From a virus (taxonomy: Duplodnaviria > Heunggongvirae > Uroviricota > Caudoviricetes), in the IMG/VR virus record IMGVR_UViG_3300029904_000001, positions 64,001 to 128,000 of that record: a DNA stretch of 64,000 nucleotides. One strand, given 5' to 3'. A program made the position numbers and the translations under genes. The number at the start of each line of letters is the position of its first letter. Position 1 is the stretch's first letter. Positions 42 through 64,000 of the stretch are shown here, piece after piece. A model generated the notes under the pieces. That model saw only the letters and a program-made list of their open reading frames with translations, was not told the origin of the DNA and did not search any database.

Positions 42-368
42 ATGAATAGTAAATTTAGTAAATTTGTCGGTTTATCTGAATCTCAATTTAATCGATTAAA
101 AACCGAGTTAGATTTAGATGACAAATTAATGCAAGAAATAATATCAGATAAAATTTTTACAGGATCAGGGGGATTACTAAAAGCAACTTTATACGCATTA
201 ATTAGACGAGATGTTAAAGGAAATGCTGATTTTACTAATAATCTTTTTTACGCATTACGTTCAGATAATCTTAGTTATTTAGAAGCCGTTAAAAATGAAT
301 ACGGACAATTAGCAATATTTTTATATAATAAATATAAACCATATTTTGAAAACGATAAGTTTATTTAA
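42..368 (+). CDS. Hypothetical protein (108 aa)
   Basis: ATG..TAA ORF that overlaps the start of the next gene; no recognisable motif. Confidence 0.6.
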   Translation: MNSKFSKFVGLSESQFNRLKTELDLDDKLMQEIISDKIFTGSGGLLKATLYALIRRDVKGNADFTNNLFYALRSDNLSYLEAVKNEYGQLAIFLYNKYKPYFENDKFI

Positions 369-1380
369 TTTTAACGTCATTCCTTTATACGATACTATAA
401 AACACGCTAAAATATCAGACGAAGAGTATTTCTCTAATAAATATAAACAATGTATATCTAATAGTAGGCTCAAACTGATAGATACAGAAGAAGGTGGAAG
501 TCCAGAAAAGTATAAAACTGGGCTGAAATCTTCTTTTAATCCTAGTTTTCAGCTAGGTTCGGCAGTTCATGAGTTAGTATTGCAGCCAGAAGAGTTTACC
601 TTACATCCAAAGTGTGAAAAGGCATCTGCTAAACAGGGATATTGTATTGATTTCATTAAAAAGTATCGAAAGCAAGGTTTATCTATTAGAAATAGTATAG
701 ATAAAGCAAGAATTGATGCAGATTATTATGCAAAAGCTCCTTTAGATAAAGTAATAGAGAAAATTAATACTCCTGAAAACAAACGTTATTATCTAAATAC
801 AAGAAAATTAGAAAATAATGTAATATTGCTTTGTGATTCAGACTGAGATACAGTTAATGAGTGTGTTTTATCTATAAAGTCAAATCGTCAGATTCAGAAA
901 AAGTTACATCCAACTGATGAATTTGGAATTGAGCTTCCTTCATTTAACGAGGATACTTTTTTCATGGATTTTAAAGTAACATATAAAGATAAAGAAGTTA
1001 TTCTTCCATTTAAAATGAAAGCTGATAACTGAACTATTGATATAGAGAATAAAAAAGTTACTTTGAATGATTTAAAGACTACTGGACATTGGTGTAGTAA
1101 GTTTATGAGTACTTCTTTTTGCGAATACCACTACTACCGCCAATTCTATGTCTATGCTTTAATTCTTTGTGGTTATTGTCGTAAAGAATATGGCTATGAT
1201 AAGAGTTGAACATTTGATTGTAATGTCTGTGTAGTCGAAACTGATTCAGATCATCGTTCTGCTTGTTTTAATATACCAAGATCTGAATTAATTAAAGGAA
1301 TGAATGAGTTTAATAGGCTATTATCTGAGGTAGCTTATTATGAAATGTTTGGATATGAGGAGCAAGTAGAATTTATATAA
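346..1380 (+). CDS. PD-(D/E)XK exonuclease (DUF3799/RecE ExoVIII-like), 344 aa with TGA=Trp
   Basis: The frame stays open through TGA at 844 and two later TGAs to TAA at 1378-1380. Motifs: GSAVHELVL, KADNW...LNDLKTT, YYRQFYVY. TTG start per the ORF track. Confidence 0.8.
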
Positions 1381-1392
1381 AAGTTCAAAAAA

Positions 1393-1424
1393 TTTGGAGA
1401 ATTAAAAAATTTATCCTATATTTG
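1393..1424 (+). promoter_or_regulatory. Bacteroidota sigma-A-type promoter (-33 TTTG / -7 TAnnTTTG)
   Basis: TTTG at 1393-1396, 20-nt spacer, TATATTTG at 1417-1424. Confidence 0.75.
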
Positions 1425-1471
1425 TATCCTCGTTCTCAAAGAAATATGCAATAAAAATTATTAAAAATAAA

Positions 1472-1503
1472 TTTGCATATTTAAAAATTTTAATCTATCT
1501 TTG
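1472..1503 (+). promoter_or_regulatory. Second tandem Bacteroidota-type promoter
   Basis: TTTG at 1472-1475, 20-nt spacer, TATCTTTG at 1496-1503. Confidence 0.75.
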
Positions 1504-1567
1504 TATTCAAAGAGATAGATAATAGATAAGAAATAATATGTTTAACAATTTTAAAAATTAATGTTTT

Positions 1568-2095: not shown

Positions 2096-2122
2096 TTATT
2101 AGAAGTCATGTTAACAAATATT

Positions 2123-2158: not shown

Positions 2159-2165
2159 GTTTATA

Positions 2166-6422: not shown

Positions 6423-6719
6423 ATGGAAGATCAAATTTTAAAACAAGTAACAGAAAATATTACTAAAAATCCATTTTATGAACAATATTATATAAGAAAA
6501 TACTTTGGAGATCAATCAGTAGATTCTTATATTCCAATTCGTATGATGGAAATACTTCCAGATAAATCGATAGCTTTAGGATTAAAAGATAGTGAACTTT
6601 TAGAGCTTTTGTTATATCGAGTTGATACGATTTATCATAATGATATGAACCAACGTGAATTAACAGAAGTTTTAATGAAAGCACTTGATTATTTTGTAGA
6701 AGCAGAAGAACGTGGCTAA
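6423..6719 (+). CDS. Hypothetical protein (98 aa)
   Basis: ORF in operon context with an 8-nt overlap into the ligase gene. Confidence 0.6.
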   Translation: MEDQILKQVTENITKNPFYEQYYIRKYFGDQSVDSYIPIRMMEILPDKSIALGLKDSELLELLLYRVDTIYHNDMNQRELTEVLMKALDYFVEAEERG

Positions 6720-7917
6720 AGAACAGGATATACTAATAAATAGAGACGCAAATGGAAAAATACGAGTAGTAGATATATCGTTAGATTGAAACGATGATTT
6801 ACATTCGTATTTAATTCAACGTAAAACTTCAGTTTATGGTGGAAAAATCACCGAACAACCTTTGATAGAAATTAAACGCGGGAAGGCTGGAAGAAGTGTG
6901 ACTGAGCAGAGCTTACTAGAATATAATTCTAACAAGAAAAAATATCTAGATAAAGGATATAAAAATATTAAAGATCTTGGATATACTTCTTTAGATGAAT
7001 TTAATCCAAATGAAGTTTTAGGGGATAATCAAACTGATTCTAATGGATTTAAAAAACACATGCTTGCTAAATCATCAAATGATGTAGCGTCAAGTGTCTT
7101 TGAACGAATTCCATTCTGATGGGGAAGTCGTAAGATTGATGGTTGTAGATGTTCTTTTTATTGAAAAGATGATAAAATACATACGGCTTCTCGTGGTGGC
7201 GGAGATTATGATGCAGCTTGTCAAGATTTTATAAACAATCCTACTTTTATTACTTTCTTTCAAAAACATCCAGATATTATATTAGATGGAGAAATGTATA
7301 AATTTGGATTATCTCTTCAACAAATTTCTGGTTGTATTAGAACAGAATTAAGTGAGGGTAAATACGATCTTGAATACTATATTTATGATACAATGACGGA
7401 AAATAAAACATTTAATGAACGTCTTGAAGAACTAGAAATGATTAAAAATGAACTTAATTTAGATTTCCAACCAGAAAGAGAATGGGAAGAAGGAGCATTA
7501 AGAATTCAAATAGTTCCTCATGAAAAAGTATCAGGATGAGCAAGTATTAAGAAATTACACGATAAATATGTAAATGAAGGTTGAGAAGGACTAGTTATTA
7601 GAGATCCAAACAAAACTTATAAATACGGTGGACGTTCTAATAATATGATTAAAATTAAAGAACGACAAGAAGAAACATTTACTATAATTGGATATGAATT
7701 AGGTTTAAGAGGTGTAGAAGATATGGTATTTATAATGAAAACTCAAGGTAATATCCAATTTAAAGCTAAACCAATGGGCAGTAGAGAAGTTAAAGAGAAT
7801 TATATGAAAAATATAAATTCTTTAATTGGACAAAAAGGCGAATGTACGTTCTTTTATTTATCAGATGATGGAACTCCGCTTCAACCTGTTTTTAAGGCTG
7901 TTAGAATAGATTTATAA
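6712..7917 (+). CDS. ATP-dependent DNA ligase (401 aa with TGA=Trp)
   Basis: GTG at 6712. Three track ORFs share one frame joined by 5 TGAs. Motifs SRKIDGCR (KxDG), LDGEMY, WEGLVIR, MIKIK, and a C-terminal OB fold (QPVFKAVR). Confidence 0.92.
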
Positions 7918-7923
7918 AAATTA

Positions 7924-8001: not shown

Positions 8002-8976
8002 ATGATTGAATATCCAAAAATTACACCGATTGAAAATCCTAAGATTGTCGAGAAAGATTATCTAATAGGTACTGTTTATTGTTTTATTAATAAAATTAAT
8101 AATAAGATTTATATTGGAGAAACAGTAAAATGTAATTACAAAACTAGGTTTATCGAACATCAAAGTAAATCTAAAACCGTTAATAATTATTTCTATAAAG
8201 CTATTAGAAAATACGGATGAGAAAATTTTGAAAGTTTTGTGTTATTTCAAACAGAAGAAGTATTATTAAATACCCCAGAAAATAAAGAAATCTTAAATGA
8301 TATAGTTAATAAAAAAGAGATAGAGTATATTGCATTATATAAATCAACTGATCATCAATATGGATATAATTTAACTATTGGTGGAGACGGTGTATCTGGA
8401 TATACTTTTTCTAAGGAAGCTAAAAAACATTTATCAGAAATACGTTCTGGAGAAAATCATTGAAATTATGGTAATTTTAACAATAAAACTTCTAAACCTA
8501 TATTGCAATTTGATTTAGATGGTAATTTTATTAAAGAATGATCTTCTGGTAATGAAATTAATCGTCAATTACATTATAATGCTAATAATGTTACGAATTG
8601 TTGTAGAGATAAATTACAAACATATCAAAATTATATTTGAATTTTTAAATCAGATTACGAAAATGGAAAACGTCCTAATACTAATACATTAACAAAACAA
8701 TTTGGACACGGAGTAAGAAGTAAAGCTGTACTACAATATGATTTTTTAGGTAATTTTATAGCAGAATATAAGTCTTGTGCAGAAGCTGGAAAAGCTTTAG
8801 GAAAAGGTACTCCAAGTAAAGCTGCGACCGGTAAAGAACCTCAATTACACGGATACATTTGAATCTATAAAGATGATTATTCCGACGAATTACTAAAAGA
8901 TAAAATAGAAAAAATTAAAGCTAAGTCTTTTTATCATAAAACTCTTGTTGAACAAAAATTGATAAAGAATGACTAA
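8002..8976 (+). CDS. Free-standing GIY-YIG homing endonuclease with NUMOD-type repeats (324 aa with TGA=Trp)
   Basis: Motifs GTVY..KIYIGET and GYNLTIGGDG, plus two repeats of the form [IL]LQ[FY]DxxGNFIxE. Open through 5 TGAs to TAA at 8974. Confidence 0.88.
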
Positions 8977-10503: not shown

Positions 10504-10660
10504 AATACAAGAAGCAGCACTAAAAGCCGAAGACATGATGAATGATAGATATGGTAATAGTTGGCTTATTGAATTAGAAAATGGTAATCTTGAAATTAAA
10601 GAAGGTTACGAAATGGAATACGATTATTATTTTGATAAATTTATGTATGGAATTAAGTAA
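10487..10660 (+). CDS. Small hypothetical protein (57 aa)
   Basis: ATG at 10487 to TAA at 10658 fills the gap and overlaps both neighbours. Not in the ORF track. Confidence 0.5.
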   Translation: MITTSKIQEAALKAEDMMNDRYGNSWLIELENGNLEIKEGYEMEYDYYFDKFMYGIK

Positions 10661-12005
10661 GTCAAAGAATGCTAATATTAATTATTTAGCAAAAATAGTT
10701 AAAATAGAATCTTTTATACCTCATCCGGATCCAGAGACTACAAGATTGAAAATAGCTCAAGTTGATGGTTATAACATTATAGTTAGTATTGATTCAGAAC
10801 CAAGTGTGTATGTTTATTTTCCAACATCTTGTGAAATAAATCCACAGCTTCTTTCATATGCTAATTTATATAGAGATAATATAAAAAACAATAATCCTGA
10901 TATAACTGGGTTTTTTGAAAATAATGGAAGAGTTCATGCTATTAGACTTAGAGGTGTAGTATCTGAGGGATTTTTAATGGATTTACAGTTATTTATTAAT
11001 TTTTTAATAGATAATGTGAATCAAGCTCCAAGTAGAATTCCAATGAACTTTGAATTTGATTCTGTGAAAGATGGAGATAAAGAATTTTGGATTTGTAGAA
11101 AATATGTAATTCCTGTTAATCCTATTCAATCTTCCGCTCAATCAAGATATCAAAAAAGAGTCAAAAAGTATAATCGTGTTATCGATACTCAGTTTAGATT
11201 TCATTATGAAACTACTTTAATACGTAAAGTACCTAATGCTATTCTTCCAGATGATCTAATATCTGTGTCAAATAAGCTTCATGGAACCTCACTTTGTTCT
11301 GCTTATGTTCTTTGTAAGAGACCTAAGAAATGGTATGAGTTTTACAAGAAGGAAGATCCAATAGAATACGATTATTTATACTCTTCTAGATCTGTAATTA
11401 AAAATTCTAATTATAATCCAAAAAGAACAGCTGGATATTTTGGTTGTGATGTATGGTATTATGCAAATGAGTATCTGAAGCCGTATTTACAGAAGGGAAT
11501 GACCATATATTCCGAGATTGTAGGATTTCTTCCAAATGGTAAATATATTCAAAAGAATTACGATTATGGATGTGTTCCACCTAAGAATGAACAAGACTAT
11601 AAACCAGAAATTAACTTTAAAGTTAGACCGTATCGTATAACTTTAACAAATGTAGATGGTTATGTACATGAATTTTCAGCTAAAGAAGTACAACAATGGT
11701 GTCAATATCATAGCCTTACTCCTGTAACTGAATTTTATTATGGATACGCAAAGGATCTATATAAAGATTTAGATGTATCTAATCATTGATATGAAAACTT
11801 TTTGGAGAGACTTGCAAACGATAAGAATTTCTATATGGAAATGAACTCTCCAGACTGTAACAATAAAGTGCCTCATGAAGGTATTGTAATTAAGAAAGAG
11901 AATATGAGACCTGCTGCCTTCAAGCTTAAATGTTGGAAGTTTCTTAATAAAACTGAGCAAGAAGCATTGGATGCAGGAGAATCAAATATTGAAGATAATA
12001 ATTAA
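10647..12005 (+). CDS. RNA ligase (Rnl2/DRB0094-like with N-terminal OB fold), 452 aa with TGA=Trp
   Basis: N-terminal OB fold (PHPD..RLKIAQV, RLRGVVSEG), motif I NKLHGTS, YSEIVG, EGIVIK, FKLK. Joined through TGA at 11787. Confidence 0.88.
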
Positions 12006-12018
12006 AATAAGAATTAAT

Positions 12019-12453
12019 ATGAAACAGTTGTTTGTTGATATACTTACTAAACTTACTCCTAAAACAGTAACATCAGAGTCTATTAAATATACACTTAATA
12101 CTAATCCTGAAACAGAAGTTACTATTATGTGGAGATATATTAAAGAAGATCAGAATCCAAAAATGGAGTTTGTACTTCCCTTTGCAGAAGATATAGATTT
12201 CGGAACTCATAGAAAATTAGGAGATTATCATAAGAAAGCATATATTATGTTTATTAATAGCATGGGATATTATATAGATCTAAATCCAGTAGAAATGTGC
12301 GAGATTGATCGAATTGTATATAATATCTTTGCTAATTATCAAAGTAATACTCTAAAATCTATTAGAAGTTATATAGATAATCTAACAAATAAACCATTAT
12401 CTCCAGATCAAAGATTTGAAGAAGCTCAGGAAGCAATAGCTAATAATGAATAA
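12019..12453 (+). CDS. Hypothetical protein (144 aa)
   Basis: ATG at 12019 after an AT-rich leader; lies within the RNA-repair cluster. Confidence 0.65.
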   Translation: MKQLFVDILTKLTPKTVTSESIKYTLNTNPETEVTIMWRYIKEDQNPKMEFVLPFAEDIDFGTHRKLGDYHKKAYIMFINSMGYYIDLNPVEMCEIDRIVYNIFANYQSNTLKSIRSYIDNLTNKPLSPDQRFEEAQEAIANNE

Positions 12454-13078
12454 ATATCTAGAACATTTAATAGGAGATCCTTTGGTATATTACGTATATC
12501 AAAGAGGATCTTCTATTTATGGTTTAAATACTGAAGAAAGTGATATAGATTATTTAGTTGTAATTGATTCTAAATATAAACTTCCTAAAGAGTTTGTTGA
12601 ATATGAGTTTAATTCTGGATGTTTAAATGCAAGAGAAAACATAAAATATGAAAATTGCGATTTTATGTTTATAAATATTCAAGATTGGTTTAATTTAGTT
12701 ATTAATAATGATATTCAAGCTTGGGAATGTGCTTGTTTAAATAAAAAATTTATTAAAAAAGAATATGTGAAATTAATTATTAAAACAGATCCAATTTTGT
12801 TAATAAAAAATATATTTAAACAAAGCTCTATTCTTGATAACTCTTTAGATTATAAACATCTTTGGTATTTTGGAAAAGACATTTTATTTACTCAACAAAT
12901 ATTAGATTTTCATAAAATTGTTGATTTTCAAGAAGCAAACGGATTATATTATGACATTCAAGCTCAATCTAATGCTAAAATAGCTCAAGATATAGTTAAA
13001 GAAGTATTTCAACAATTTTATGAGAAAAACAAAGGTCAGTACGAACAATATATTAAATCTATAAAACAAAATGAGTAA
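12446..13078 (+). CDS. Pol-beta superfamily nucleotidyltransferase (RlaP-like)
   Basis: RGSSIYG-LNTEESDIDY matches the GS...DxD signature. Confidence 0.75.
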   Translation: MNKYLEHLIGDPLVYYVYQRGSSIYGLNTEESDIDYLVVIDSKYKLPKEFVEYEFNSGCLNARENIKYENCDFMFINIQDWFNLVINNDIQAWECACLNKKFIKKEYVKLIIKTDPILLIKNIFKQSSILDNSLDYKHLWYFGKDILFTQQILDFHKIVDFQEANGLYYDIQAQSNAKIAQDIVKEVFQQFYEKNKGQYEQYIKSIKQNE

Positions 13079-13943
13079 AATATTAGTACTTCAGGGACCT
13101 CCGGCAGCGTCTAAGTCTACGTGGGCTAGAGAATTTGTTAAAGATAAAACAGATTGGGTTATAGTTAATAGAGATTCTTTACGTGAAGGAAGAGGAGAAT
13201 ATTGGATTCCGAGTCAAGAAGATTATATTTCTGATTTGGAAGAATTTTCTGTAAAGGCTGCCATTAATAGAGGATTAAATGTTATTATAGATGCAACTAA
13301 TCTTAATCCAAAAACTATTGATAAATGGAATAAATTAGCTAAAAGTACGAAATCGACAATTGAATTTAAAGAGTTTTATATTCCATTTAAAGAAGCTCTT
13401 GAACGCGATAAAAAGAGAGAAAGATCAGTTGGAGAAAAAGTTCTTAAACGATTTTATAAACAATATTATCCAGATGAATACGCAAGAGAATGTACAGATA
13501 ATAGATATATTCTAGAACAAGATAAATCCCTTCCTAAATGTATTATTGTCGATTGTGATGGAACTGTATGTCTTCATCAAGGTAGAGATGCTTTTGAGTA
13601 TGATAAAGTATTAACAGATAAACCTAATACACCATTAATTGATCTTATTACTGTTTTAAGCGCGTCTATCGATATAATCTTTTTCTCTGGTAGAGAAGGA
13701 ACAAAACAGTGTCGAGAAGATACCTGCAAATGGTTAAATCAACATACTAATTTTCCTTATCAATTATATATGCGAGCCGAAAAGGATTATAGACCGGATG
13801 AAATAATTAAAGAGGAGTTATTTAACACTCATATAAAAGATAAGTACTATTGTGTTGCCATTTTTGATGATCGGGATCGCGTGATTAAAAAATGAAGATC
13901 GATGGGACTGTTAGCTAATCAAGTATACGAAGGTAATTTTTAG
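13071..13943 (+). CDS. pseT: Polynucleotide 5'-kinase/3'-phosphatase (T4 Pnkp-like), 290 aa with TGA=Trp
   Basis: P-loop GPPAASKS, VIIDATNL, HAD motif DCDGT, SGR, FDDR. Reading through TGA at 13893 gives KKWRSMGLLANQVYEGNF-TAG, matching the T4 Pnkp C-terminus (MWRRIGVECWQVASGDF). Confidence 0.92.
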
Positions 13944-16984: not shown

Positions 16985-19292
16985 ATGGATCTCGAAAAAG
17001 CATTAAAAAAATTAATCTATAAGGATCCGTTCTATGGTCTATTTTTACTAAATCTAGATAAACAATATAGTACAGAAATTGAAACAGCAGCTGTTGCTAG
17101 AAATGGCATCAACTGTCGTTTACTTATTAATAAAGAATATTGGGATAGTTTATCGGACGAGAATCAGCTATTTTTACTTAAACATGAGGTTAATGTGTAG
17201 CCTCTTTATATAGTAATATATAAATAAAACGGCTTAAATTGCGGGAAACTCCTTAGAGCTTTTATTACAAACTTATTATAGTAATATAAATAAGGGCTGA
17301 AGTAATTACTCGGAGATTGTAAAAAGATAAAAGATTGGACAATCCGCAGCCAAGTTTCTATAAAATATTTTGAAATTTAAAATTAATTTTATATATTTGT
17401 GTTAATAATTGGACATAAGTTTAACTTTAAAATTTAATAATTATGTATAAAAAAGAATTAACTCAAAAACAAAAAGAATTAATTTTAGATTGTTATTGTA
17501 ATCAAAAATTATCAATTCCAAAAACATCAGAAAAATTAAATATTACAACGTATTTAATTTCTAAATTTTTAAAAGAAAACAAATTAACTAGAATAGCTGG
17601 TACAGAAAGAAAATATTTTCATAATGAATCGTATTTTGAAAATATTACAACTGAAAGACAAGCGTATTGATTAGGTGTATTATATGCAGATGGTTGTGTT
17701 AGCAAAGATAATTCTAATACAGGTATTTTACGATTTAGTTCAATTGATAAAGAATGAGTCGAACAATTTAAAATAGACATAAATGCTTCAAATCCTGTTT
17801 TAGAAGAAATACATAAAAAATTTAATAAATCTATTTGAAAAATTCGATTAAGTAGTACAAAAACTTTTAATGATTTATGTAATTATGGGTGTGTTCCTAA
17901 TAAATCTTTGATTATTAAGTTTCCTAAATTGCCCGATGAATTGATTCCTCATTTTATAAGAGGTTATTTTGATGGAGATGGATGTATATCGGAAAAGAAA
18001 TATATTTCTGGAAAAAATTATACAACTCTTAAAACTAGTTTTTGTACAGGATCTAAAGAATTTATTGAAGAATTATTAAAATTTTTACCAGTTAAGCACA
18101 AACTAATAGAAAAAAGAAAAAATAGAAATTTATACGAATGTCGTTTTTCTGTGAATGATAGTGCTAGTTTATATCATTTTATGTATAAAAATAGTACAGT
18201 TTGATTACAACGTAAAAGAAATAAATTTGAAAAATATTTTATAGAAAAAGGTTCAACGACTATAATAGCCCATCCAAATTAAAAATTTGGATGAAGGTAT
18301 AGTCTAGTTTTATGTAGAAATATATAAATATTCGTGGACATATAATGTTTAAGCACTTTTTTATTATGAGTGACTGTTCTAATCATACAGTAGCTAATAT
18401 TGCGGAGGACGTCGAGATAAATAATTATGTGGATCCCTCCAGACAATTTCTTGGCAAGTATTGGTATCCAGAATCAATAAATCAGCCTGAAAAATTAGGT
18501 TCTCGTGAATATTATCGTAGGATAATGAATAATGAAACTCCAATTCAAGTTGTTAGTGTTGGAATTAAAGGATCAAATGGAGAACAAATGGTTGATGATC
18601 ATTCGAAATGGGGTTCAGATAAAGAAGATGGATTTGAGGATTTATCAGATGCAGAAAGAGAATTAATCGCACAACAAATAGACCATATTGCGAAACAAAC
18701 AGCGGAACAAACAATTAAACAACATGGCACAATTCCAGGATGTTTCAAAGATTATATAGAAGGTTTGTTTAAACAAAAACCTGCTATTTTTAATTGGAAG
18801 AAATATTTTAGAAGACTAATTGGAACTGCTATATCAATAGATTTAAAGAAAACACGTAAAAAAGAATCTATTAGATTTCCCGATAGTTCTGCTGTTAAAT
18901 ATAAAAGAAAATCAAAAATATTAGTAGCAATCGATACTTCTGGATCAGTAAATGATAAAGAATTATGCGATTTCTTTAGTGAAATAAATCACATTTGTAA
19001 ATCTAATGTCGATGTAGATGTTTGTGAATGCGATACACAAATAGATCGTATTTATAAATATAATGGTAAATGAGATGGGTCAATATCAGGTCGTGGCGGT
19101 ACCGCATTTGAGCCTCCCATAAAATATTTTAACGAGCATCGAGATTATACAACTATAGTTTATTTTACAGATGGATATGCTCCACTTCCATCGATTAGAG
19201 TTAGAAACAACCAAATAATCTGGGTTATTACTTCAAATGGAGATCATAAAGAATGGCCAGGTTATGCAATATACATACCAAATGAACATTAA
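16985..19292 (+). CDS. DUF2201-type metallopeptidase + vWA domain protein (387 aa after splicing)
   Basis: Exons 16985-17190 and 18335-19292. Splicing restores LKHEV-GH (HExxH). The vWA MIDAS motifs DTSGS, RGGT and FTDG appear after reading through TGA at 19071. Confidence 0.88.
17369..17399 (+). promoter_or_regulatory. Intron-internal Bacteroidota-type promoter for the LAGLIDADG gene
   Basis: TTTG at 17369-17372, 19-nt spacer, TATATTTG at 17392-17399. Confidence 0.7.
17443..18282 (+). CDS. Intron-encoded double-motif LAGLIDADG homing endonuclease (279 aa with TGA=Trp)
   Basis: Motifs AYWLGVLYADGCV and PHFIRGYFDGDGCI. Contains 4 TGAs. The 3' end (KGSTTI) overlaps intron element R. Confidence 0.9.
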
Positions 19293-22266
19293 TACAATAA
19301 CGTTAGAAGAATTTAAAGATATTTGTAACTACTTGCTCGATAATAATAGGAGACTTGTAGATGAAGGTAAAAATCCGACTGCCGTTGGTGTAATAGGAGA
19401 AGCTGGATTAGGTAAAACCTCGGTTATACAGCAAATAGCTGAAGAAAGAGGTATGACGTTTGTTAAATTAAATCTTAGTGAGCTTGAAGAGGTCTCAGAT
19501 CTTACTGGTTTCCCCATTAAGGAGTATAAGCTTAGAGTAAAGAATTCTGAAGGCAAATTTGTTGATACCTGGGTTGCACATGACCTTTTAGACTTATATC
19601 TTCGTTCAGCTTGTGAGGATTTTGAGTTAACAGATCAAGTTAGAATGAGTTACGCTACTCCAGCTTGGCTTCCAAGAGAAGAAAATGAGAATGGTACTAT
19701 CCTGCTACTTGATGATTATTCGCGTAAAATTAAATAAAAATCTCAACAAAAATCATCAAGAAATATTTGTTTATTTTAAAATTTTGTGTATCTTTGCATA
19801 ATTAACCAAATAAAAATATTAATTATGTGAAAATTAACAAAAGAAAATTTAAAATTACCAGAAGTTAAAGGTAAATCTGGAGTTTATCGATTCTGGTGTA
19901 ATGATCATTCCTACATTGGAAGTGCAAAAGAATTTAAACATAGATTATCTACCCATATAAATACTATGAAGCGTGGTACACATCATAATCACACCGTTCA
20001 AAATGTATTTAATAAATATGGATTAGATTTATTTACGTTTGAAATTTTAGAATATTGTCCAATTGAAGATTTATTGGTTAGAGAAACATACTATATTAAA
20101 ACTCTCAAACCAGACATGAATCATATTTTAGATGCAGTAAGAATAGAACGAGATCAAGAGACTATCGAAAGAACAAGAATTTCACAATTAAAATATTATG
20201 AAACACATCGTCCAACTAATATTAAAAAGGTTTACCAGTACGATTTAGATGGAAATTATTTAAATGAATATGATTCAATTGTTGATGCTGCCAAATCTAT
20301 TGGAACTAATAAACACGGATCGATTTCACAATGTTGTAATGGAAAAACCAAAACGGCAAATGGATATCGATGGAGTTTTAAGAAATACTCACAATTGCCA
20401 AAATTAGTTAAAAATTGTAAATTTAAAACAATTTATCAATTGGATAGTAATAAAAAATTAGTTGGAATATGATACAAATTAACTGATATTGAACGTGATT
20501 TGCATATTATGCGAAATACAATAAAACTTTATTTAAATAAAGATGAATTATATAAAACTTGTTATTGGACAACTATTCCTCCAGAAGATTTAACTATCGA
20601 ACCAGGAATAAATCCGGTTTTAACTTTACCAGAATTCATCCCAAATTTAAAAGCTTCAGTAAAAGTTTATCAATATGATTTAGATGGAAACTATATCGCT
20701 GAATTTCCCTCTGCTGCAGAAGCAGATAGACAAATGGGAGCTACATCAATAGGAGCAGTTTCTAGTGCTGCTAGAGAGGATACAAATAATAAAACAGCGT
20801 TTGGATATCAATGAAGTTATAAAAAAGCAGATAAAATACCACCTTACGTTAATAATAGTTCAAAAGCAAAAATTGTATCTATTTATATATTTGATATTTT
20901 TAACAATAAACATCTTCAATTCGAAAGTATCGCAGAAGCTGTAAGAAATTTAACAAATAATGATAATTTTGACTCAGATTGTGCTACCATGTCTAGTTGT
21001 GCTAAATTAGGTGCGATATTCAAGTGCAAATATTTAGTTAGTTATTCGTCTGATTTCAAACTTCCAAAACGTAAAACAATTATTTATAATTCACTTCAAG
21101 ATACATTTTATTCTAATGCTAAAGTTGCAGCGGAACAAAACCATCTATCAGAATATAAAATTAAACAAAGTTGCATAGATCAAAATAATGTTGAGTGGGT
21201 CTATGTAGTCGATTGTGCGCGAAAAAAACTCAGTGAATCTGGAAAACTCCTTGAAGAAGGACAATCCTAATCCAAGCTTTGTAGAAATACAATGAAGGAT
21301 CAACGACTAGATAAAGTAATCTGACCGAGTGGTGTCGAAGATGAAATATCCACGAGTGCTGAGCAACAATTTATACTTACCGAAGTTAAACGATTGTTGA
21401 AGAGATAGTCTGAACTATATAGTAATATATAGAAGTATCAGATAAAGAACTGGTACGATAACAATACTAAAATGGCAAATTCTTTGTTTATGCAAGCTGT
21501 AATGGAACTCATCTATACAGGCAAATATATTAGTTGGAAATTACCTAAATATACTTCCGTGATGCTGAGTTCAAATCCTGATGACGGCTCATATCAAGTA
21601 AGTTCTCTTGATGCTGCACAAATGTCAAGAATGGTTAACTTTCCAATTAAATTTGATATTAAGGTTTGGGCCGCGTGGGGAGAAAAAGCACAATTAGATA
21701 ATAGGGCTCTAAATTTTGCTCTAATGTATTCTAATGAAATATTTGAACAAGAAAACAATCGCACAATTAATCCTCGTTCTTATACTACTTTCTGTAATGC
21801 TATTTCTGGATTAAAGGATTGGTCTAATACTAAGGATTTAGCAATGATATTAAATATAGCTAAAGGATGTTTTGATGATAAAGATAACATTGTTGGAAAT
21901 CTATTTACTATGTTTATAGCTAATAAATTGGATAAACTTATATCTCCAGAAAGATTGTTAACAGGTGATTGGAAAGAAGTAAGTGAAGAAATAAAACAAT
22001 GTGTGTATGATGAACATGGAAATTATCGTCCAGATATAGCAAGTGTTTTATCTACAAGACTTCTTAATTATACGAGTTATTATTTTGAGCAAAAAGGTTC
22101 TAAATCAGATTCAGTTCAAAAACGATTACTAGAAATTATCGATTCTCCAGAAATGCTATTTTCTGAAGATTTAATATATAATGTAATTAAACAACTTGCT
22201 ACTAATTATGCTAGTAGAATGAATAAAGTTATTATACATCCAAAAATTCGTAAAAAATTATTATAA
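19282..22266 (+). CDS. MoxR-like AAA+ ATPase (411 aa after splicing)
   Basis: Exons 19282-19725 and 21475-22266. Walker A GEAGLGKTS. Splicing joins Walker B LLLDDYSR to ANSLFMQAVMELI. Also SSNPDD and the Arg-finger SRM. Confidence 0.9.
19767..19797 (+). promoter_or_regulatory. Intron-internal Bacteroidota-type promoter for the GIY-YIG gene
   Basis: TTTG at 19767-19770, 19-nt spacer, TATCTTTG at 19790-19797. Confidence 0.7.
19825..21270 (+). CDS. Intron-encoded GIY-YIG homing endonuclease with NUMOD1-type repeats (481 aa with TGA=Trp)
   Basis: Begins ATG-TGA-AAA at 19825. Motifs SGVYRF..SYIGSA, and repeats VYQYDLDGNY. Three track ORFs share this frame. Confidence 0.87.
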
Positions 22267-23975: not shown

Positions 23976-24016
23976 AAGCCCTAGGTGTCGTAATGACGCT
24001 TAGGGCTTATTTTTTT
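23976..24016. terminator. Bidirectional intrinsic terminator at the strand convergence
   Basis: AAGCCCTAGGTGTC-GTAAT-GACGCTTAGGGCTT with a T run on the right and an A-rich run on the left. Confidence 0.85.
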
Positions 24017-27000
24017 AATTTTCTCAGGTTCTAACCATACCTTGAAATTCTCTTACGGCTCCAATATTACTTGTAACAGCTCTTGCTAAAGTCATATCAC
24101 CAGTAATCAATCCAATTGATGTATCAACTAATTTCTTCATTGAACTAATTAAAGGAGGATTAACATCAGAGAACATATCCATAACAATTTGAGTAAATGG
24201 ACCATCTTGAAATGCTCCCATTGCTACTTTGTATGATCATTGTGTTCACCAATTTTCATCTCTAATTTCTTGACGAGTTTTTGATTTACTTAGAATGTTT
24301 TCTTGACCAATCGCAGTAGAGAATAAAGCATTAATTATTAACATAATAATAGAAGCTAAAACCATATCGTTTAAAGCTAATATTAAGTTAGCTTTTTTCA
24401 TAGGGTCTTTAATTATCTCTCTAAGTTCTTGTCCATCCATATTTCTAATGGCTTTTGCAAATGACATAGTGGATTGTCACATACCTTCCATAGGAGCACC
24501 CTCTCATCTCATATAAGGTTCATAATTTCCAGATTTTTTATCTTCTTCTGTTAATTGTGATTCTCTTATAATGGTTCGAGTTGGGATTCCAATATTATTC
24601 CCATCTTTATAGTCAACTTTGATATAAAGTTTTTCTTTAGTTACAGGATCATATTGTTGTTTTAATAATTCCGTATTATATATACCAGGCTTCATTACCC
24701 ATTGCTCTAATTTTGCCGTAATGAATGTTTTATATTGCAAGAAAAAAGAACCTATAAAAGTATCATTAATCAATGCTCTAGATTCATCATCATAGTGTCC
24801 GTATAATAAGTCAGCAAAATTTTTAAATGTTTGTTGTTCTCTTGGTGGATAAGCTATTGGAAGATCATCTCCCTCTTGATATTGTGTGCCATCTTCTTTT
24901 GTATATCCAATACGATTATATTCACGAATGTAATTTAAATATAATGCACGTTGTTCAAAATATGCTGGGTCATCTGTCTTATTATTAACATATGCTTCAA
25001 ATCGTTTATCTTTTTTTCAATCATATTTTAACACTCCATCTTTATCTAAAGAATGTGCCTCTCACGATCCATCTTGCATCATTTTACCTACCAAAATAGA
25101 CATTCTATGTTGAAAATCAGGTGCAGAAGATGTTCAGAACAAAGTATCTGTACTTCAATTACGAATTCCAAATCTATTAATTTTTCTTTGTCTAGCTAAA
25201 TTAGATAAAGACATATTGGCCATACCATATTGAGTGTTTAATTGCTGTAATAGACTTACGGATGAAAAATTTTTATGTGCTTCTTTAATAACATGGCCAG
25301 CACCAGCTATATAGTGTTTTGCATCCAAGCCATCAATCAGTTTAACTCCAGAACGTGTAAATCCAATAAATGTACCTTGTAATAACTCTCTAAACATTGA
25401 ATTGAAGTTTAAACCAAGAGTCATCATAGAGAATCCTTTTTTAAGTAAATTTAAATATCTTCAAACAGCACGTAAATCTTCTTTCATGATAGGCTCTCCA
25501 TAAAACTTACTATCTAAGAATTTATCAAACGTTTCTAAGATTGCTTCATTCTTTTGTTTACCGTATTGTTGTGCATGTTGAAGTGATAAACGCATAGCTT
25601 GAAAAGTTGGAACATATTTTTTAGATAAATCTTCTTTAACATAAGCAGTTAATGCTTGATTAAATACTTCCTCAACATCCATACTAAAAAATCCAACACC
25701 GTGATCTTTTAATTTTTGAGCACGTGTATCGCTATCTAGTCGAAATTTATTATATACAGAATTAGCTTTTACTCTTTGAACAACTTTTGATATACCTTTT
25801 TTATCTTCATCTTCGGCAAACACTCCTTCGTGTAACGTTTGATATTCTTTTCATTTATTTTTAAACGCTTGTTTAACACTTAATCTACGAGCTTGTTGAC
25901 CAAATCTAGCTTCTGTTAAAGGAATTTCAAATAATGTTTCATCGTCGTTATCTCACATTTCTTGAATTGCTTCATCAGTAAAGCCTCGAAGTTTTGCCAT
26001 TACATTAATAAATTCTATAATAGCGGCTTTAGCTTTTGGTTGTGCATTAAATTCAGCAGAATATGGGTTTTTAATTAAAAATTTTGGATTTATTTCTCCA
26101 TTGGGTAAAGTTCTAAACCAAGATTCAAATAATTTATCATTTACTAAATGTGGATTTTTAGCTTGTTCTTCATCTATATAAGCTCTAACTAAACCTTGAA
26201 ATTTTTGTCCCATTATTTGAACTTTATTTCTTACTTCAGCTACGTATTGATCGTGTACTTGAGCTAAAATTCTAATATTTGCAGATGGAGAATACTGACC
26301 AGCTGATATTTGTAATCCACTAAGATTTATGTTAGAATTAGCAAATATCTCTCCTGGTGACATTTCATTTACTGTATATAATCCTTTAAGAGCCAATAGA
26401 GCTTTAGTTAAATACAAATAAGCTTGTCACACTGGAGAAGTTTCACTGAACATTTCTTCATTGTGTAATTCTGGATGCTTTGATTTTAGCTCTTTAATTT
26501 TATCAGAAATTCACTGTTCGTTATATCCAGCACTTTGAGCATTTGGAACTAATTGAAAATCAATTCAACCAGTATCAAGAGTTTCCATTTTAGAATAAGC
26601 AATACTAAGTAATCCTGTAACATCATCCCAAAATAAATCATCGTTTACTTGTTTTAAATCTAATTCAGGATTCTGCATTACTATCATATTTCAATTATGG
26701 ATAGCACTTGAATTTAACATTGAAACCATACGATTGTGATCAGATCAAGGATTTATAGCTCTGATTTCAGCAATACGAAACTGTTTAAACATATCTGAAT
26801 GCTCAGAAATATAATACATTGCTTTCATGATTTCAATGTTACCATAATTAGCATCGAAAATTTCTTTTGAATTGACGTTAGCGTTAGCTACTTTTTTACC
26901 TAATAAACTAGTGCCCATTCCAAGATTTAAAGTTTGTAACAACTGTTGATTTGTTAACATTAATATCTCAGAAACTCCATTACGTCTAAAGATAAAAAAT

Positions 27001-34600: not shown

Positions 34601-37600
34601 AATCAAGTTCAGCAGTATACGCTCCTCCAAATAGTTGGTCAATATCATATAAAGTGATATCTTCAGGTTTCTTAGTAATAACTTCTACTGGAATAACATT
34701 GTCAATATCTAAAATAGTTCCATTTCTGTCTGTAACTAACTCCATTCGAGTGTACGAAACAGTTCCATCAGAATTTTCTTTTTTTACAATACCTTGAATA
34801 TATCTCCAAGTTTGAGTTTCTTTATCAAAATAATATAAATCTTTATTTTTAGTATTAAAATAACGAACCAAATCTATTTTCTTACCAATAGGAATGTTGT
34901 GCATCTTTTTAAATAATTGTTCACCACTCATATTGGAAGTTTGAGACATTTGTCTACGAGCGTTAGTTAGTGCGTATACAGCCCATTTAAGAAGAGTTGG
35001 ACGACCATAAATAGCATCTACGTCTCCCATAATTGTTTTCTTATCGTAGCCAACATTAGCATCACATAAAGAAACATTCTCCATTCTGGCTTGTAATGGA
35101 CTAGAAATACCAGATCCATCCATAGAATCTAAATCTCGTTTTTCCTCTCCAATCATGTTTCAAACAGTAGCAGGAATATCTTTTAAGACAGCTATATTTA
35201 TAGTTTCTGCAACTCCATGTTTCATTCCTTGTAAAAATGGATGATACGTCGCTCCCATAATTACAGCACGCTTATTTTGAGCTATAAGACGATTGGCCTC
35301 GCTATATTCAAAATAATCGTCTTTATATAAACCGCCTTCTTTATTCTTATTTGGATGTGCGTATACTTCACCTAATGTTAGGGAATTATATTCATTAGAG
35401 AGTATAATATCAGATAAGAAATAAGCTTCTAATAATGGATTAAGTACAATTTCCATTTCTGGATCATTAGCTAAAAACTGCGCAATATTATATTTAGTAA
35501 TTTTTTCGCCTTTTTTGGTTTTAGCTAATATCATATCGCCAGAATTCTGATAAAATCAAGTACTGAAGTTAGAATTTCCAGATAATTGATAGGCACTATT
35601 ATTTCTAAACTTATTAAATGTAATATCGTTATCTAATAATTGTTGTAAAAAGATACGTTTTTGATTATTTAAACGTTTCTTAACTTTTTCAGGATTATTA
35701 AAGGTATTATATCAATTATAAATAGTTTCATTCATTAGTATTTTCTTAGATTTACCGTCTTTATAATAATGAATATTTTCGAATAAGTCAATGTGTGCGT
35801 CTTTAAAGGCTTTCTGAATATCTGCTTCAGAGAGTTGATTATTTACTATAAAAGAGTTAATACTATCTAAGGAAGTAAAAGTTTGACCAAAAGCATCACT
35901 TCAATCCTGTAAAATATTAGTAACTACTTTTTCCATTTTAGTAGCACGTAAAGTAGAATATACTCGAACTAAACCTGTATTATCACCATTATTTATACAG
36001 TTTTGAATTAATTCTTTTATATTTACTCACGTGCCATTAACATCCACATCATCCTTAATATTAAATGGAATAACATAATGAGTTCCTTTATCTGCAAAAG
36101 TTGTACTTTGAAATTCTACCTTATCTTTATCTATATTATTATAAAAATCACTAAAAATAGCAATATTCATCAATTCTGTAGTAGTTAAATCACTTGGAGA
36201 TTTAACTTCTCCTCCAATTTCAATATTAGATCTAATATAAGGTTGTCCAATCATTTCCCTATTTCTCACAATTAGATTATCCTCATACATATTATATCTT
36301 TCTTTACCAGTACGTTTTTGATGTTGATCAACAGCATCTTCGAGATGATTCATCATTGCTGGTACATTTTGAGCAAGACTAATTAGTTGAGTAGTAGGGA
36401 CGCTATTTCCTTCTAGATTCTTAATTACACTTATAGTATCCGAACCAAATAATACACTTAATGTATTAGCTATTCCATCTAAAGTTGTATGATAACTTTT
36501 AAAATCAAATAAACCGGATTTAGTTCATTCGTAATTTAGTTTAGAATTTATATTTCCAGCAGTTATAATCATTCCTAATACTGGAGCAAATGCCTTAAAA
36601 ATCGAAGTATTCTGAGAGTTAATTTGTTCTGATATACGTTGATAATCATCCGGTAATACATAAGAAACTAAATCTTGAATTATTTTTTTGGTAGTAGCTT
36701 CATCTAAATCATCGCTAGTACGAAAAGTGTATCTTCCATTGTTATATTCATAAGAAATAGTAGCTTCATCTCCTTCATCAGTTGTAAATGTTATTTTACC
36801 TTTACCATCATCAACGATATTATAATCAGTTAATAACTTCTTAAACTTATTTGGATCTTTTCTAAAAACTGCAATAGAAGATGCAATAACATCTTGTAAA
36901 CGATATTTTTGAATATTGACAAGACTATCCCGTAAATTCTTACCTTCAATTAAATTTGTAGTTGGATCTAATTGATACGAAACATAAGTAATAGGAACAT
37001 TTTTAAAAAACATTGCTGTAAACATGTCTTTTATATCTTGATCAATATCAGATTCATAAATATTCTTTTTAATTGAACGTAATTTAGAAATAAGATATGT
37101 CTTACGTCTATCGTTTACATTTGAAACATTACTTACTCAATCAATATATTGAGTTAACACATTAGACATATCCATCTGTGCTCCTTTCTTTAATTCTTTA
37201 GATAATGTTTGTAGTTCTGAAGGTGGATACATCAAAGTAGTCTTTAACGAAGCCATTGCTGAAGTAAAACCTTGTAATCCAATAGATGTATTAGGAATAG
37301 GTATATTACGAGCATCTAATTCAGGAAATATATCTAATAGAATATCTGCTAAATCAGAGGCTTGTTCAAATGCATCTGCATACTCACTAGATGAGAATTT
37401 ATAGAAATGTTCTACATTTGGTCCAGTATATTCATATTGATCAATGTGTTGATATTCTGAATCTTGATAATTACGTTTTGTTCTAATAAATGGAGTATTA
37501 CTTTTAATTAAATCATCAAATTTAGATAAAATCGAATATGTATCACGTAATGTATTCTTTTTATCTTCACTTGCGTTTTCATATAATAATTTAGCACTTT

Positions 37601-38105
37601 CAATTAGAGCACTAAATTCTTGTCCACTAATAGTATAATCTTTTGGAATTGAGTCTCCTTGAATTTCTAAATATATTTGATTTATAAGATCATATTTGTA
37701 CTTAGCGATATTCTTATTTAGATTATTTAGATTTGGAACATCACTAGGTCCATTAGCAGATACAAATCTTGTTTCTTTTAAATTATAAATAGATGATTCG
37801 ACAATTTTTTTAGCAAAAGTTCTACGTAAATTATTTAAATCTTGTGATTTACCTATATATAAACTAGTAAGAGAATCTTTATCAGATGATTCTATAGTTC
37901 TATTTAATGATTTTTCTTCTGGAGCTTTTGGTTGAGATTCTTTTTTGCCAGCTCCTAAATTGCTTTGAAATTCAGATATAACTTGATCCGCATTTTCAAA
38001 TTTTTGTTCTACAAAAGATTTAAAATCTTCTGGAGACAAAGATTGACTCAATGTCTCCAAAAGATATTTAAATTTATTTGAATATGTACATTTTTTAGCA
38101 CTCAT
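28611..38105 (-). CDS. crAss-type virion RNA polymerase (single chain, two-barrel) with a C-terminal zincin domain (~3027 aa after splicing)
   Basis: Exons 38105-32451, 32266-31433 and 31205-28611. Splicing restores GARIPTQ...WLEGSDYD-IDK and LSAATD-NAKELIL. DGSGISSP..EN.SL and KSAIKVG occur upstream. The C-terminal region contains FHEIGH. Confidence 0.92.
31206..31432 (-). ncRNA. ORF-less group I intron (227 nt) in the RNAP gene
   Basis: P1 is exon CTACAGAT paired with GTCTGTAG. P AACTCAGGGAAAC, Q AATCCTGATC, R GCAACGACTAT, S AAGATATAGTCT. Terminal G at 31206. Removal restores the reading frame. Confidence 0.92.
32267..32450 (-). ncRNA. Minimal ORF-less group I intron (184 nt) in the RNAP catalytic DxDxD motif
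   Basis: P1 is exon TACGAT paired with GTCGTA. P AATTGCGGGAAA, Q AATCCGCAGC, R GTTCAACGATTA, S AGAGATAATCT. P3 ATTCTC/GAGAAT. Terminal G at 32267. Confidence 0.92.
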
Positions 38106-57000: not shown

Positions 57001-57588
57001 TTATTGTTGCACATATTCAGGTTCATTAGAATCTTGCTTACGTAAATACTCAAATATTTTCTTACCCAATCGTTTATAATCAGACTCTTTTTTGGTTGTA
57101 TAAGCTCTCTTAGCCATTCTAACTAGTGTTTTCGTATTTTTTATACTGAAAATGCGCTCAGAACCCTGTAAGACGGCTTGTACTTCTCCATCAGATCCAT
57201 AAACATACATTTTATTAGTTGGGAGATCTTTTCCTGGACTTAATTCATCATCTTCTACATCTATTTCATCTCCAGGTTTAACTCCAGAATTTTGATTTAA
57301 TTCTAGTACATATTGAACGTTATCTTCACTTAAAATAGTTTCATCATAAGGCATTCCCTTCTTTACAGATATTACTTCTCAATCTGAGTTGATAAATATT
57401 ACGTCTAAAGGGATACTGGTTCGATACATTCAGAATTCAGCCTTATGTGGATAATTATATACAAATAACATTCCCTCATCTGGGTCCATTTCTTCAACAT
57501 TCATTAAACCTTGCTCCTTTTCAATCTCTGTTTGAGCTACTAGAACATTATATTCTTTGTCATTAATTTCAAGATTAATTGTTTTCAT
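57001..57588 (-). CDS. DUF192 (COG1430) domain protein with a C-terminal extension (195 aa with TGA=Trp)
   Basis: AQTEIEKEQGLM...GMLFVY...EFWMYRTSIPLDVIFI...YVLEL; the Trp of the conserved FWM is encoded by TGA. Confidence 0.82.
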
Positions 57589-60494: not shown

Positions 60495-60497
60495 ATC

Positions 60498-63400
60498 TTA
60501 TGCATAACTAGTCATTATCATAGTTTTAATAGCTGATATTAAAACTAAATCTTTTCCTGTATATTTTATTCTAATCTTACATCACTTATCTCTAATACGT
60601 GTTGACTTCCAATCTTGTCTCTTAGTATCTATATCATTATTTCCAGTTACTCCATATTCTGCATTTTCTGCATCTGCTTTTCTAAATAGAATTGGATCTA
60701 TAGTTAGATATCAAACATCTTCTTTATATGTAATATTACCTCTCATACGTCCATATTCTTTAATATCATAACACTTTTGATTAGTTTTAAGAAGATATTG
60801 ATTCAATATTGGATCTCATTCAACAGTAGTATTTTTAAACTCTTCTGAGGTTTTAATTGGATTATCTTTAATTCAAGGTAATCTTTGAGATCCGTTTGTA
60901 GGATTTTTACCTTCATCTTTAATAGGATATTCTGGAATAAACGGCTCTCCTTCTTTAGGAAGTAATTTAACTGGAGTATTATAATTATCTCATTCTTTAG
61001 AAGAAATCGGATTTTCCCGTTTTTCTCAATAATCCTGATTATATTTCCAGAATATTCCAGCTTTATTAAATCCATAAACATCTCCAACAATTTCATATTC
61101 AACTTCAGAAGGTTGAACGTTATTAGAAATAATTACAAGATTATTAAATATTTTATGTAATCCAGCGGGTTCGTTAACTACAAATTCAAACTCAAATGGT
61201 TCTTGTTTATCATATCATACAGTTGGAAGAATTTCATTTGTTCTATCTTCATCAAAATAATTAATTTCATCAAAAATTCCTGCACGACCATGAACATAAA
61301 ATCCGTTTTTCATAAGTTTATCGTAAGCATCTTTATCCGCTTGATTTGACAATTTGGAATAATCAGCAACAATACCAAAAACCGTTTTAAATGTATCACC
61401 AACTGTTATTTTCTTTTCTTTAGTAATAGCATCTTCTACTTCTGTATAAGGAGTTGCTTTTACAATAAAATATAAATAATACAATTGATGTCCATTATAA
61501 GTCATAAGATTTGCAGGTAATTCGAATTGTCCATTAATATACGGAGTTAATTCTTTTCCCTCAGCCAATGTTCCAGATAATACTAATTTCTCTATTTTTT
61601 TACCTGTTTCTGGATCTTCTACTGACACTAAATCGACATTTAATAGTGTTTTAATATCAGTAGTAGGCTGAGAGATAAAAATTTCTGTTCCATTTTCATC
61701 TAAATAAGAAGACTTAATATCTTCTATTTCATAATGAAAATATTTAAAGAAATCGTATGCATTAACTTTTAAAGTTATAGTGTGATTTTTATTTAAATCT
61801 GTTCATAGATTGCTAGATGTATCTTTTGTATTAACACTTACAATACCCGCAGTAGCATTAATATTATCATAAATATAAGCTAATATTTCAGCTCGTTTTT
61901 TATCTAAAGAATAATAAATATTATTTACATTTTCAGAATAAAGAGGAACCCAAGAATATCTTGTCGATCATTTATCTAAACGTTCGTTATAACAAATGTT
62001 CCACTCTTCATCTTCTGTGTCATTATAAAACGTAAACATTATATCACCTTTATAATTATTATAATGTGATTTTACATTTCTTAATGCAATAGTTGGATAT
62101 TTATCTTTTTCTTTTAGTTTTATATGATCATTTAAATAACGTTGAATCTTAGCATCAGATATTAATTCTAATCCATTATTTTGAGAGAATCTTCATATTT
62201 TTTTAGCATATGTATCAACACCATAAACGCCAAGAGGAGTTCTTATTATCGATTCTTGCCAAATTGAACCATAATCTTGAGAAATAATACTCATTTGATT
62301 TTGTAATACCCCAGCACCATACATATGTATAGATTGTCCTGTTGTAGTAGCCATTAATGCTTTTTCATTAACTGGAATAATAGTAATACCATGTTCAAAT
62401 ATAGCTAAAAGACTCGTTCCTCATGATATTAACTTAACCAACCCTCCATATTGTCGATCCATATCTTTATAAGACAATCCTTGGAATATTCTATAGGCAT
62501 TTTGGAAAGCATCATCTTGCTGTACATTAGAGAACATTATACGGGTATCAAAAATATCTCTAGTATATGGAATATCTTGTACTGGTAGGAATGATTTTCT
62601 TCCAACAGTTGAAGAATAACCATCGTTAAGTTTTCAGGAATCTTCCAATTTATTTCCAGCAGAAGTAAAAGCACCAGTATTAGGATAGAATGAACGAGGA
62701 TTACCCATTAATGCCATCTCTTCAACATTAGTGTAATCTAAAGCTCTTAATCCAAGATTATAATTACTTAAACATTTTCAAGTAATTCAAGATCCAATTG
62801 GTACGGTATTAACATCACCTCTGTTTATCGATAATCAAGCGTCTTCATCTGTAGTATTATATCCATCATAATTATCTTTTCATGTATTTGGATCAATAAT
62901 TATTTCATTTACAGGAACATCTGAATCAACAAAATTACGTTGCAATCGTATTGATACAGTACATGTATAACAATCCCCACGCATAGCTCATATGGAAGCA
63001 TTTGGATCATCTCATTTTTTATCATCTAATGCTCATCTATCTGTAATAGCAAAGAATGGAGAATTATCGTTACCACGTATTTTAAAATATTCTTGTTCAA
63101 ATACAGATGAAAAATTACGTATTTTTACATTATATAGATACGCATCTTTTAGTTCTCCAGATAATCCTAAAAATGGACACCATATACCACGTAATAAATT
63201 TTTATTATCACTTGCATAATCTTGTTCACTAAAGAAAGCAATCTGTTTTACTTCTTCAGCAGCTCCAGCTCTTGTAGAAAAAGCTTGATTATTCATATAT
63301 TTTGTTGGAATATCACTTCCAACATAAATTGTTCCTAATTTATTAGATATATTGCTAATCTCTTTTGTGTCGGCTTCAGCAGTAAAAATTCTGTCATTTG

Positions 63401-64000
63401 TAGAATCTTGATGAATTTCTCTTGATTCAAATTCTTGAAATACAAATTCAGAACCATCAAAAGTAGATTGTAAAATAGGAGCGATACAAGGATCTATTGT
63501 TAATAACGCAGAAGTAGCTTTAAAATTAGTACTTTTCTTTTTAAAATTAGTACTTAATGTACCATTATCATCAATAAAACCTTCTGTTATATATAATGGT
63601 TTATTAGAACCTTCTGCACTTACTATTGGTAAGATAGGCACATGACTGGTTCTATCAATACCAACAGATAAACCTTGACATAACGTAGTCGGAATTCTTT
63701 TTTGTCTTACAATAAAAAATCCTTTAATTCCTAATTGTTGTAATCTTTCCCTTAAACGAGATTTCATACTTATTGTAAAGCCATACGGTTTTATAGTATA
63801 ATTTTTATGATCGTAAATCGCTAATCGTGTTGGAAGTTTAAACACTCCCATAATATTATCAAGATTGCTTCCATTAACTATAAAATCTTCTTTAGGAATA
63901 TAGTTTAATTTAACAGAGTCTCAACTACCTTCAACGGGTTTTGTTCTATGTCCACTTTCATCCAATTCATATTCAACAATTGGATTACCATTTTGTTCGA
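60498..64000 (-). CDS. Tail stabilisation/muzzle protein (P22 gp10-like), 5'-truncated by the window edge
   Basis: One frame is open from the window end to TAA at 60498. C-terminal RIRDKWCKIRIKYTGKDL..ISAIKT and internal WSTRYSW resemble crAss tail stabilisation proteins. Confidence 0.7.

Follow-up and report, generated by a model that had tools for sequence, protein, structure and literature searches.

In the 64,000-nt window analysed here (positions 64,001 to 128,000 of the IMG/VR record IMGVR_UViG_3300029904_000001, a phage genome of 176,910 bp with direct terminal repeats and 30% GC), TGA appears to be a tryptophan codon, and it is highly likely that it is decoded by a tRNA-Trp(UCA) that the phage encodes 29 kb upstream of the window in a gene split by an intron. 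The variable region of this tRNA forms a second arm whose loop displays CCA. Recoding of TGA to Trp has already been published for crAss-like phages of the Zeta group and is therefore not surprising on its own; the split, dual-arm decoder is what sets the system apart. The chances seem evenly balanced for the fuller proposal, in which the UCA arm would decode, the CCA arm would be shown to the tryptophanyl-tRNA synthetase (TrpRS) of the host, so that no phage synthetase would be needed, and a self-splicing intron would hide the gene, explaining part of the missing-suppressor problem.

TGA as a tryptophan codon

The first-pass annotation, made from the letters of the window, had noticed adjacent open reading frame (ORF) fragments on both strands that are in frame and separated by TGA. 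This was borne out by 24 genes of at least 90 aa in the window, distributed over both strands, which contain in-frame TGA (up to 24 per gene). Coverage of the window by stop-to-stop frames of at least 200 codons rose from 0.43 under code 11 to 0.87 when TGA was treated as sense and hardly changed with TAG as sense (0.45); genome-wide, frames of at least 100 codons covered 0.54, 0.85 and 0.58, respectively. Genes of at least 100 codons contained 380 TGA and 363 TGG codons, and the base following TGA showed no clear bias relative to TGG (p 0.09). All 36 TerL loci from relatives (55-81% identity) gained likewise from read-through of TGA, so that an assembly artefact and decay into pseudogenes are both excluded as causes of the pattern. 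The claim that no gene ends in TGA agrees with the data but is partly circular, as gene 24015-28607 has a TGA two codons ahead of its TAA, and the ATGA overlap with the next gene contains an in-frame TGA in three genes outside the window (genome 163897-165039, 146666-147004 and 21408-21626), so that termination at TGA is still conceivable there.

The encoded residue was assessed in locally conserved contexts aligned to four relatives. Opposite the TGA codons of this phage the relatives had TGA 100 times, W 59, Y 33, F 22 and C once, with neither G nor S, and W made up 59 of the 145 aligned sense codons; opposite its TGG codons they had W 137, TGA 63, Y 29 and F 16 times. Judged by these alignments, TGA and TGG are interchangeable, the predicted reading of TGA as Trp holds and code 25 (TGA as Gly) is excluded. 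Four motifs in which TGA had been said to replace a conserved Trp were all located. KK[TGA]RS of Pnkp (at 13893) faces W in T4 PNK and Pnkp1, and EF[TGA]MY of the DUF192 protein (at 57432) faces W in two solved homologues; since these homologues are solved standard-code proteins, both sites support Trp. The LAGLIDADG motif AY[TGA]LG lies at 17668. The ligase motif EG[TGA]EG (at 7582), by contrast with what had been claimed, faces Y or G in distant ligases and does not discriminate the residue, and neither did the PDB alignment of ThyX.

A candidate split tRNA-Trp(UCA) gene and its intron

A scan of the window confirmed that it contains no tRNA; the first-pass annotation had also proposed that the phage must supply or induce UGA decoding. 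A genome-wide scan with standard tools was empty: ARAGORN (default and relaxed) and Rfam RF00005 gave 8 or 9 tRNAs genome-wide and no credible UCA tRNA, the intron calls of relaxed ARAGORN were noise, and profile searches of the genome for TrpRS (tRNA-synt_1b), RF-1 and PCRF returned nothing, as did the RF-1 search in five relatives. The Jade-type code-change module, in which TrpRS and RF1 stand beside the suppressor, was not found here. A candidate tRNA-Trp(UCA) was found by reading the tRNA cluster by eye, and the standard finders miss it because its gene is split. With the intron (227 nt, with a terminal G) excised, the remaining 92 nt fold as a cloverleaf (-35.0 kcal/mol) whose 7-nt loop carries the anticodon UCA, which is present only after the intron has been removed; shifting the cut by one base either way gives a loop of 6 or 8 nt. 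The tRNA has A1-U72, G2-C71, G3-C70 and G73 as in bacterial tRNA-Trp, and departs from the canonical form in its anticodon (UCA rather than CCA) and in a variable region of 25 nt rather than a short loop. Its acceptor stem of 7 bp (not 8) and its D stem of 4 bp (not extended) are unlike those of tRNA-Sec.

It is barely conceivable that TGA is read instead as Gly, as Ser (given the long arm and G73) or as selenocysteine (Sec), or that the element is akin to a transfer-messenger RNA (tmRNA), and these readings were refuted at the sequence level. A short acidic open frame inside the insert fits a tmRNA-like element, but a group I core is recognisable in the insert, which relatives lack or have replaced, no tmRNA was called at the locus by ARAGORN (default settings) or Rfam, the acceptor stem differs from that of tRNA-Sec, and the alignments above place Cys opposite TGA a single time and Gly or Ser never.

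The insert is readable by hand as a group I intron. The U of the 5' splice site pairs with a guide G, the guide TTGGAG is complementary to the spliced junction, the helices P2, P3, P4, P7 and P9 can be drawn, with a P3/P4/P7 core that includes the G-binding pair, and two-sided changes in P2, P7 and P9 occur among the related introns of G007 and one syntenic relative. In BLAST the intron matched only short stretches, of an intron from a Staphylococcus phage and of a tRNA intron from a jumbo phage, and a first DNA pattern built for it gave three matches, all due to chance. The group I intron of cyanobacterial and plastid tRNA-Leu(UAA) lies between anticodon positions 34 and 35 and has a short P1. 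The phage intron resembles it in insertion site, short P1 and 5' and 3' ends, but interrupts a suppressor tRNA and has a core too divergent for the Rfam group I model RF00028. A 735-kb phage (LR756501; L047:1305-1600) also has a tRNA-Leu-like gene that is interrupted by a group I intron whose 3' end is similar.

Some points count against the split tRNA as decoder. Its T loop is non-canonical (GGCAGAA), and RF00028 did not match the tRNA intron, so that the class is a hand reading; this score, however, is a library score and not a defining feature of splicing chemistry.

Among the 28 relatives searched, nine had the split gene; in the loci of three close relatives, no tRNA cluster was found near groEL. 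About 17 distinct tRNA variants are split at an identical site, by introns that range in length from 183 to 706 nt. The longer introns contain ORFs that by eye look endonuclease-like, and the intron cores at this site differ. No intron is present in the recoded relatives G002, G004 or G006, nor in about 45 further phage tRNAs. Given the varied cores, the endonuclease-like ORFs and the intron-free relatives, a tolerated mobile (homing) element is the most likely identity of the intron and fits better than a timing switch. That it serves as a selected gate, with splicing delaying the suppressor and hence the late genes, is unlikely: the anticodon does exist only after splicing and many Zeta-like relatives keep an intron at this site, but the intron-free tRNAs and the marks of homing speak against it, and introns are abundant elsewhere in the genome. 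Introns of 600-700 nt in the tRNA-Trp of L252, L089, L141 and L093 contain endonuclease-like ORFs of 165-176 aa with TGA in the first ten codons, so that each ORF would depend on the tRNA that its intron interrupts.

Opal Zeta crAss-like phages (Yutin et al., PMC7886860; Lera and relatives, PMC12386605) have the same genome size of 145-192 kb, many introns and TGA-to-Trp recoding mainly in late genes, and several members are listed there without a detectable suppressor tRNA; here, in contrast, a candidate suppressor is located, split by an intron and equipped with a second anticodon-like arm. In the TGA-recoded gut phages of Borges et al. (10.1101/2021.08.26.457843), a suppressor was found in only 35% of code-4 genomes, and non-canonical tRNAs were suggested as the reason. 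An intron that hides the tRNA from standard tools could account in part for the lack of a recognised suppressor in most TGA-recoded phages. A literature search, whose coverage left out most subscription journals, found no description of a suppressor tRNA that is split by an intron or has two anticodons.

The CCA arm and its possible role in charging

The 25-nt variable region of the 3' exon folds into a 5-bp hairpin with a 7-nt loop, in which CCA occupies positions 3-5 as in the anticodon loop of normal tRNA-Trp. In pattern scans many viral contigs had this dual-arm form, whether or not the intron was present, but the scans were not counted as evidence of conservation because they required the CCA loop; most of their bacterial matches were due to chance or were tRNA-Sec-like with another loop register. 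Four of these (L382, L388, L466 and L474; mostly Alphaproteobacteria where named) are tRNA-Sec-like with TCCAAA in the variable arm in the other register, which calls for caution in pattern searches. A control scan without the CCA-loop requirement provided an unbiased sample. Among the matches listed, 45 of the 80 loci were tRNAs (24 long-arm, 9 short-arm and 12 Sec-like); the CCA loop was present in all 24 long-arm tRNAs, which have a 7-bp acceptor, and in none of the 12 Sec-like ones in the register of the phage arm, i.e. in 24 of the 33 non-Sec phage UCA tRNAs listed. One exception, L332, with a long arm and no CCA loop, came from the unlisted matches. Over 38 distinct arms, the four outer positions of the arm stem were paired in 148 of 152 cases (90 +/- 5 in shuffled arms), and a single position showed as many as six pair types; the arms are related, so that this comparison overstates their independence and yields no probability. 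Even so, the constancy of the loop on a stem that varies freely indicates selection.

The anticodon and G73 are major identity elements for TrpRS (PMC9976931). The UCA anticodon lacks C34, and the spare CCA loop is most simply understood as restoring synthetase binding; we lean towards this role, in which the CCA loop would help TrpRS to accept a tRNA whose anticodon has lost C34. A weak pattern points the same way, as TrpRS is encoded in two of seven near-complete short-arm phages and in none of 19 dual-arm phages (p 0.065). Two short-arm tRNA(UCA) phages (L378 and L379; 167 and 223 kb) carry a full class Ic synthetase (PF00579), probably TrpRS, as in the Jade module. The CCA arm is not generally required, however: in the recoded relatives G004 and G006 the tRNA(UCA) is short-armed and TrpRS is missing, and in E. 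coli extract 13 phage tRNA(UCA) inserted Trp unaided, with 11 of 31 near background (PMC12636597).

Another job for the hairpin is possible, if somewhat doubtful: it could be a decoy for anticodon nucleases or modifying enzymes of the host, a second, UGG-decoding arm in an alternative fold, or a relic of arm duplication. The hairpin is followed by a linker of 4-5 nt that resembles a normal variable loop, which allows a fold to be drawn in which the CCA arm takes the decoding position. Short-arm relatives manage without the arm, and the phage has an RNA-repair module (RNA ligase and Pnkp) consistent with nuclease pressure. A relic, however, would not retain its loop while the stem varies freely, a second decoder would be needless because a UCA anticodon usually also reads UGG, and the TrpRS pattern, weak as it is, suggests charging. 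If the CCA loop does aid charging, it offers a mechanism by which host TrpRS could charge a tRNA without the anticodon identity base, and decoding would be separated from synthetase recognition inside one tRNA, a property that the design of suppressors could exploit. Both this question and that of the hidden suppressors can now be tested with a 92-nt RNA. tRNA-Sec and allo-tRNAs (PMC5389517) share the long variable arm and, for tRNA-Sec, the UCA anticodon; the phage tRNA differs from them in its 7/5 acceptor branch (not 8/5, 8/4 or 9/3) and in its predicted Trp rather than Sec or Ser identity.

Proposed code switch, host and genome context

TGA accounted for 0.16 of Trp codons in the early region (16-44 kb, small genes), probably an overestimate since some wrong-strand frames were counted, for 0.36 in the replication region and for 0.64 in the virion region (early versus virion, p about 1e-16), and two homing endonucleases in the window encode Trp by TGA only. 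Early genes thus largely avoid TGA, whereas the virion, RNA polymerase and endonuclease genes and several replication genes cannot do without its read-through. As the ligase, ThyX, Pnkp and RNA ligase need read-through, the code would have to switch before or during replication. The phages of Borges et al. have the same bias of TGA towards structural genes and intron endonucleases; the present phage differs from them, and from those with the Jade module, in that no TrpRS or RF1 was found and that the switch is required for core replication enzymes (ligase, ThyX, Pnkp) as well.

The Bacteroidota-type promoters reported by the first-pass annotation were confirmed as a motif, TTTG-N17-22-TAnnTTTG, which is enriched between genes: 13 of its 24 genome matches are intergenic, compared with the 13% of intergenic sequence (p about 2e-6). 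Eight intergenic matches lie inside the window, and one copy outside it stands directly ahead of the tRNA cluster. Promoters and early avoidance of TGA together favour, without proving, a Bacteroidota host with the standard code. This assignment draws on the promoters and the nearest phages and not on a CRISPR match; a search with GroEL homologues returned no host names. For some opal Zeta phages the predicted hosts are Holdemanella or Faecalibacillus (PMC12386605) and not Bacteroidota, and gut Eggerthellaceae with code 4 exist (PMC13462651). Dual-arm tRNA(UCA) genes were observed on two contigs of metagenome-assembled genomes (MAGs), L380:4634-4665 (Phoenicibacter) and L458:4061-4092 (Coriobacteriia), and four ORFs neighbouring the L380 gene contain in-frame TGA; this tRNA may be the decoder of the code-4 Eggerthellaceae. 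These observations would suit a host that itself uses code 4 (Mycoplasmatales or recoded Eggerthellaceae), with TGA as its Trp codon and the phage tRNA a mere supplement. We consider such a host very unlikely, given the intergenic enrichment of Bacteroidota-type promoters, the early avoidance of TGA, which a code-4 host does not require, and the nearest annotated phages, which infect Bacteroides or Flavobacterium. The tRNA-Trp(UCA) of code-4 bacteria (Mycoplasmatales; Eggerthellaceae, PMC13462651) shares the Trp acceptor identity and UCA anticodon with that of the phage; these bacteria, however, have lost RF2, and the text of PMC13462651 mentions no variable arm, whereas the two Coriobacteriia contigs have the dual-arm form.

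With a standard-code Bacteroidota host, the phage would switch UGA from stop to Trp during infection. The tRNA cluster would be transcribed from the host-type promoter, the group I intron would splice itself out and create the UCA anticodon, and host enzymes would mature the tRNA ends. Host TrpRS would then charge the tRNA via A1-U72, G2-C71, G3-C70 and G73, possibly aided by the extra CCA loop, which short-arm relatives manage without, and the charged tRNA would compete with host RF2 at UGA.

The phage is probably an intron-rich, Zeta-like member of the crAss-like phages (Crassvirales). TerL and portal match the PHROG terminase and portal families and are homologous to those of crAss-like phages; the nearest annotated TerL relatives are crAss-like, Bacteroides and Flavobacterium phages (TerL/portal identity about 25-40%). 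Large RNA polymerase genes contain the DxDxD motif once the interrupting segment is removed (Table 1); the PHROG search gave no match for them and left the large virion genes without names. The genome size falls inside the 145-192 kb of the Zeta group and intron density is high (three group I introns above the Rfam cut-off genome-wide and several more below it), which fits the published description of the group (PMC7886860).

Table 1 Features of the recoded region and of the candidate decoder (window positions unless marked as genome).
Feature	Position	Strand	Details
Candidate decoder tRNA-Trp(UCA)	genome (G000:C1) 34520-34838 = L002 15520-15838	+	5' exon 34520-34552; intron 34553-34779; 3' exon 34780-34838 (CCA-loop variable arm)
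Whole recoded region	346-64000		candidate decoder outside the window
Replication and nucleotide-metabolism block	346-23964	+	in-frame TGA scattered through the block, 0.36 of Trp codons being TGA (genome 44-88 kb); includes exonuclease, ribonucleotide reductase (0 TGA), DNA ligase, RNA ligase, Pnkp, ThyX, dNMP kinase
ATP-dependent DNA ligase	6712-7917	+	5 in-frame TGA; longest code-11 piece 124 aa
Homing endonuclease	8002-8976	+	5 TGA, 0 TGG
Polynucleotide kinase/phosphatase (Pnkp)	13071-13943	+	TGA at 13893
LAGLIDADG endonuclease	17443-18282	+	4 TGA, 0 TGG
Virion and RNA polymerase block	24015-64000	-	heavy recoding, as many as 24 TGA in one gene; 0.64 of Trp codons are TGA (genome 88-168 kb)
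RNA polymerase subunit, first exon	32421-38105	-	12 TGA; excising 32267-32450 (184 nt) restores DxDxD in frame
DUF192 protein	57001-57588	-	TGA at 57432 opposite conserved W
Bacteroidota-type promoter	1393-1424	+	others start at 1472, 7924, 17369, 19766, 55065, 55319 (+) and 55041 (-)

Group I introns that score above or close to the Rfam cut-off lie at 21193-21432 of the window and at genome 139045-141949 and 162230-162443, in the virion block downstream, where one adjoins the portal gene. Weak YrlA-like Rfam matches with the T arm before the D arm (L002:12572-12682 and 13410-13527; genome about 31570-32530) are possibly permuted tRNA genes, and a second copy of the 5' end of tRNA-Pro lies near L002:16751. 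Chicken-gut metagenome runs contain a nearby stretch in full and may indicate the source. The RNA-repair module (RNA ligase and Pnkp) spans 10581-13943 of the window, with one in-frame TGA near the C terminus of each protein.

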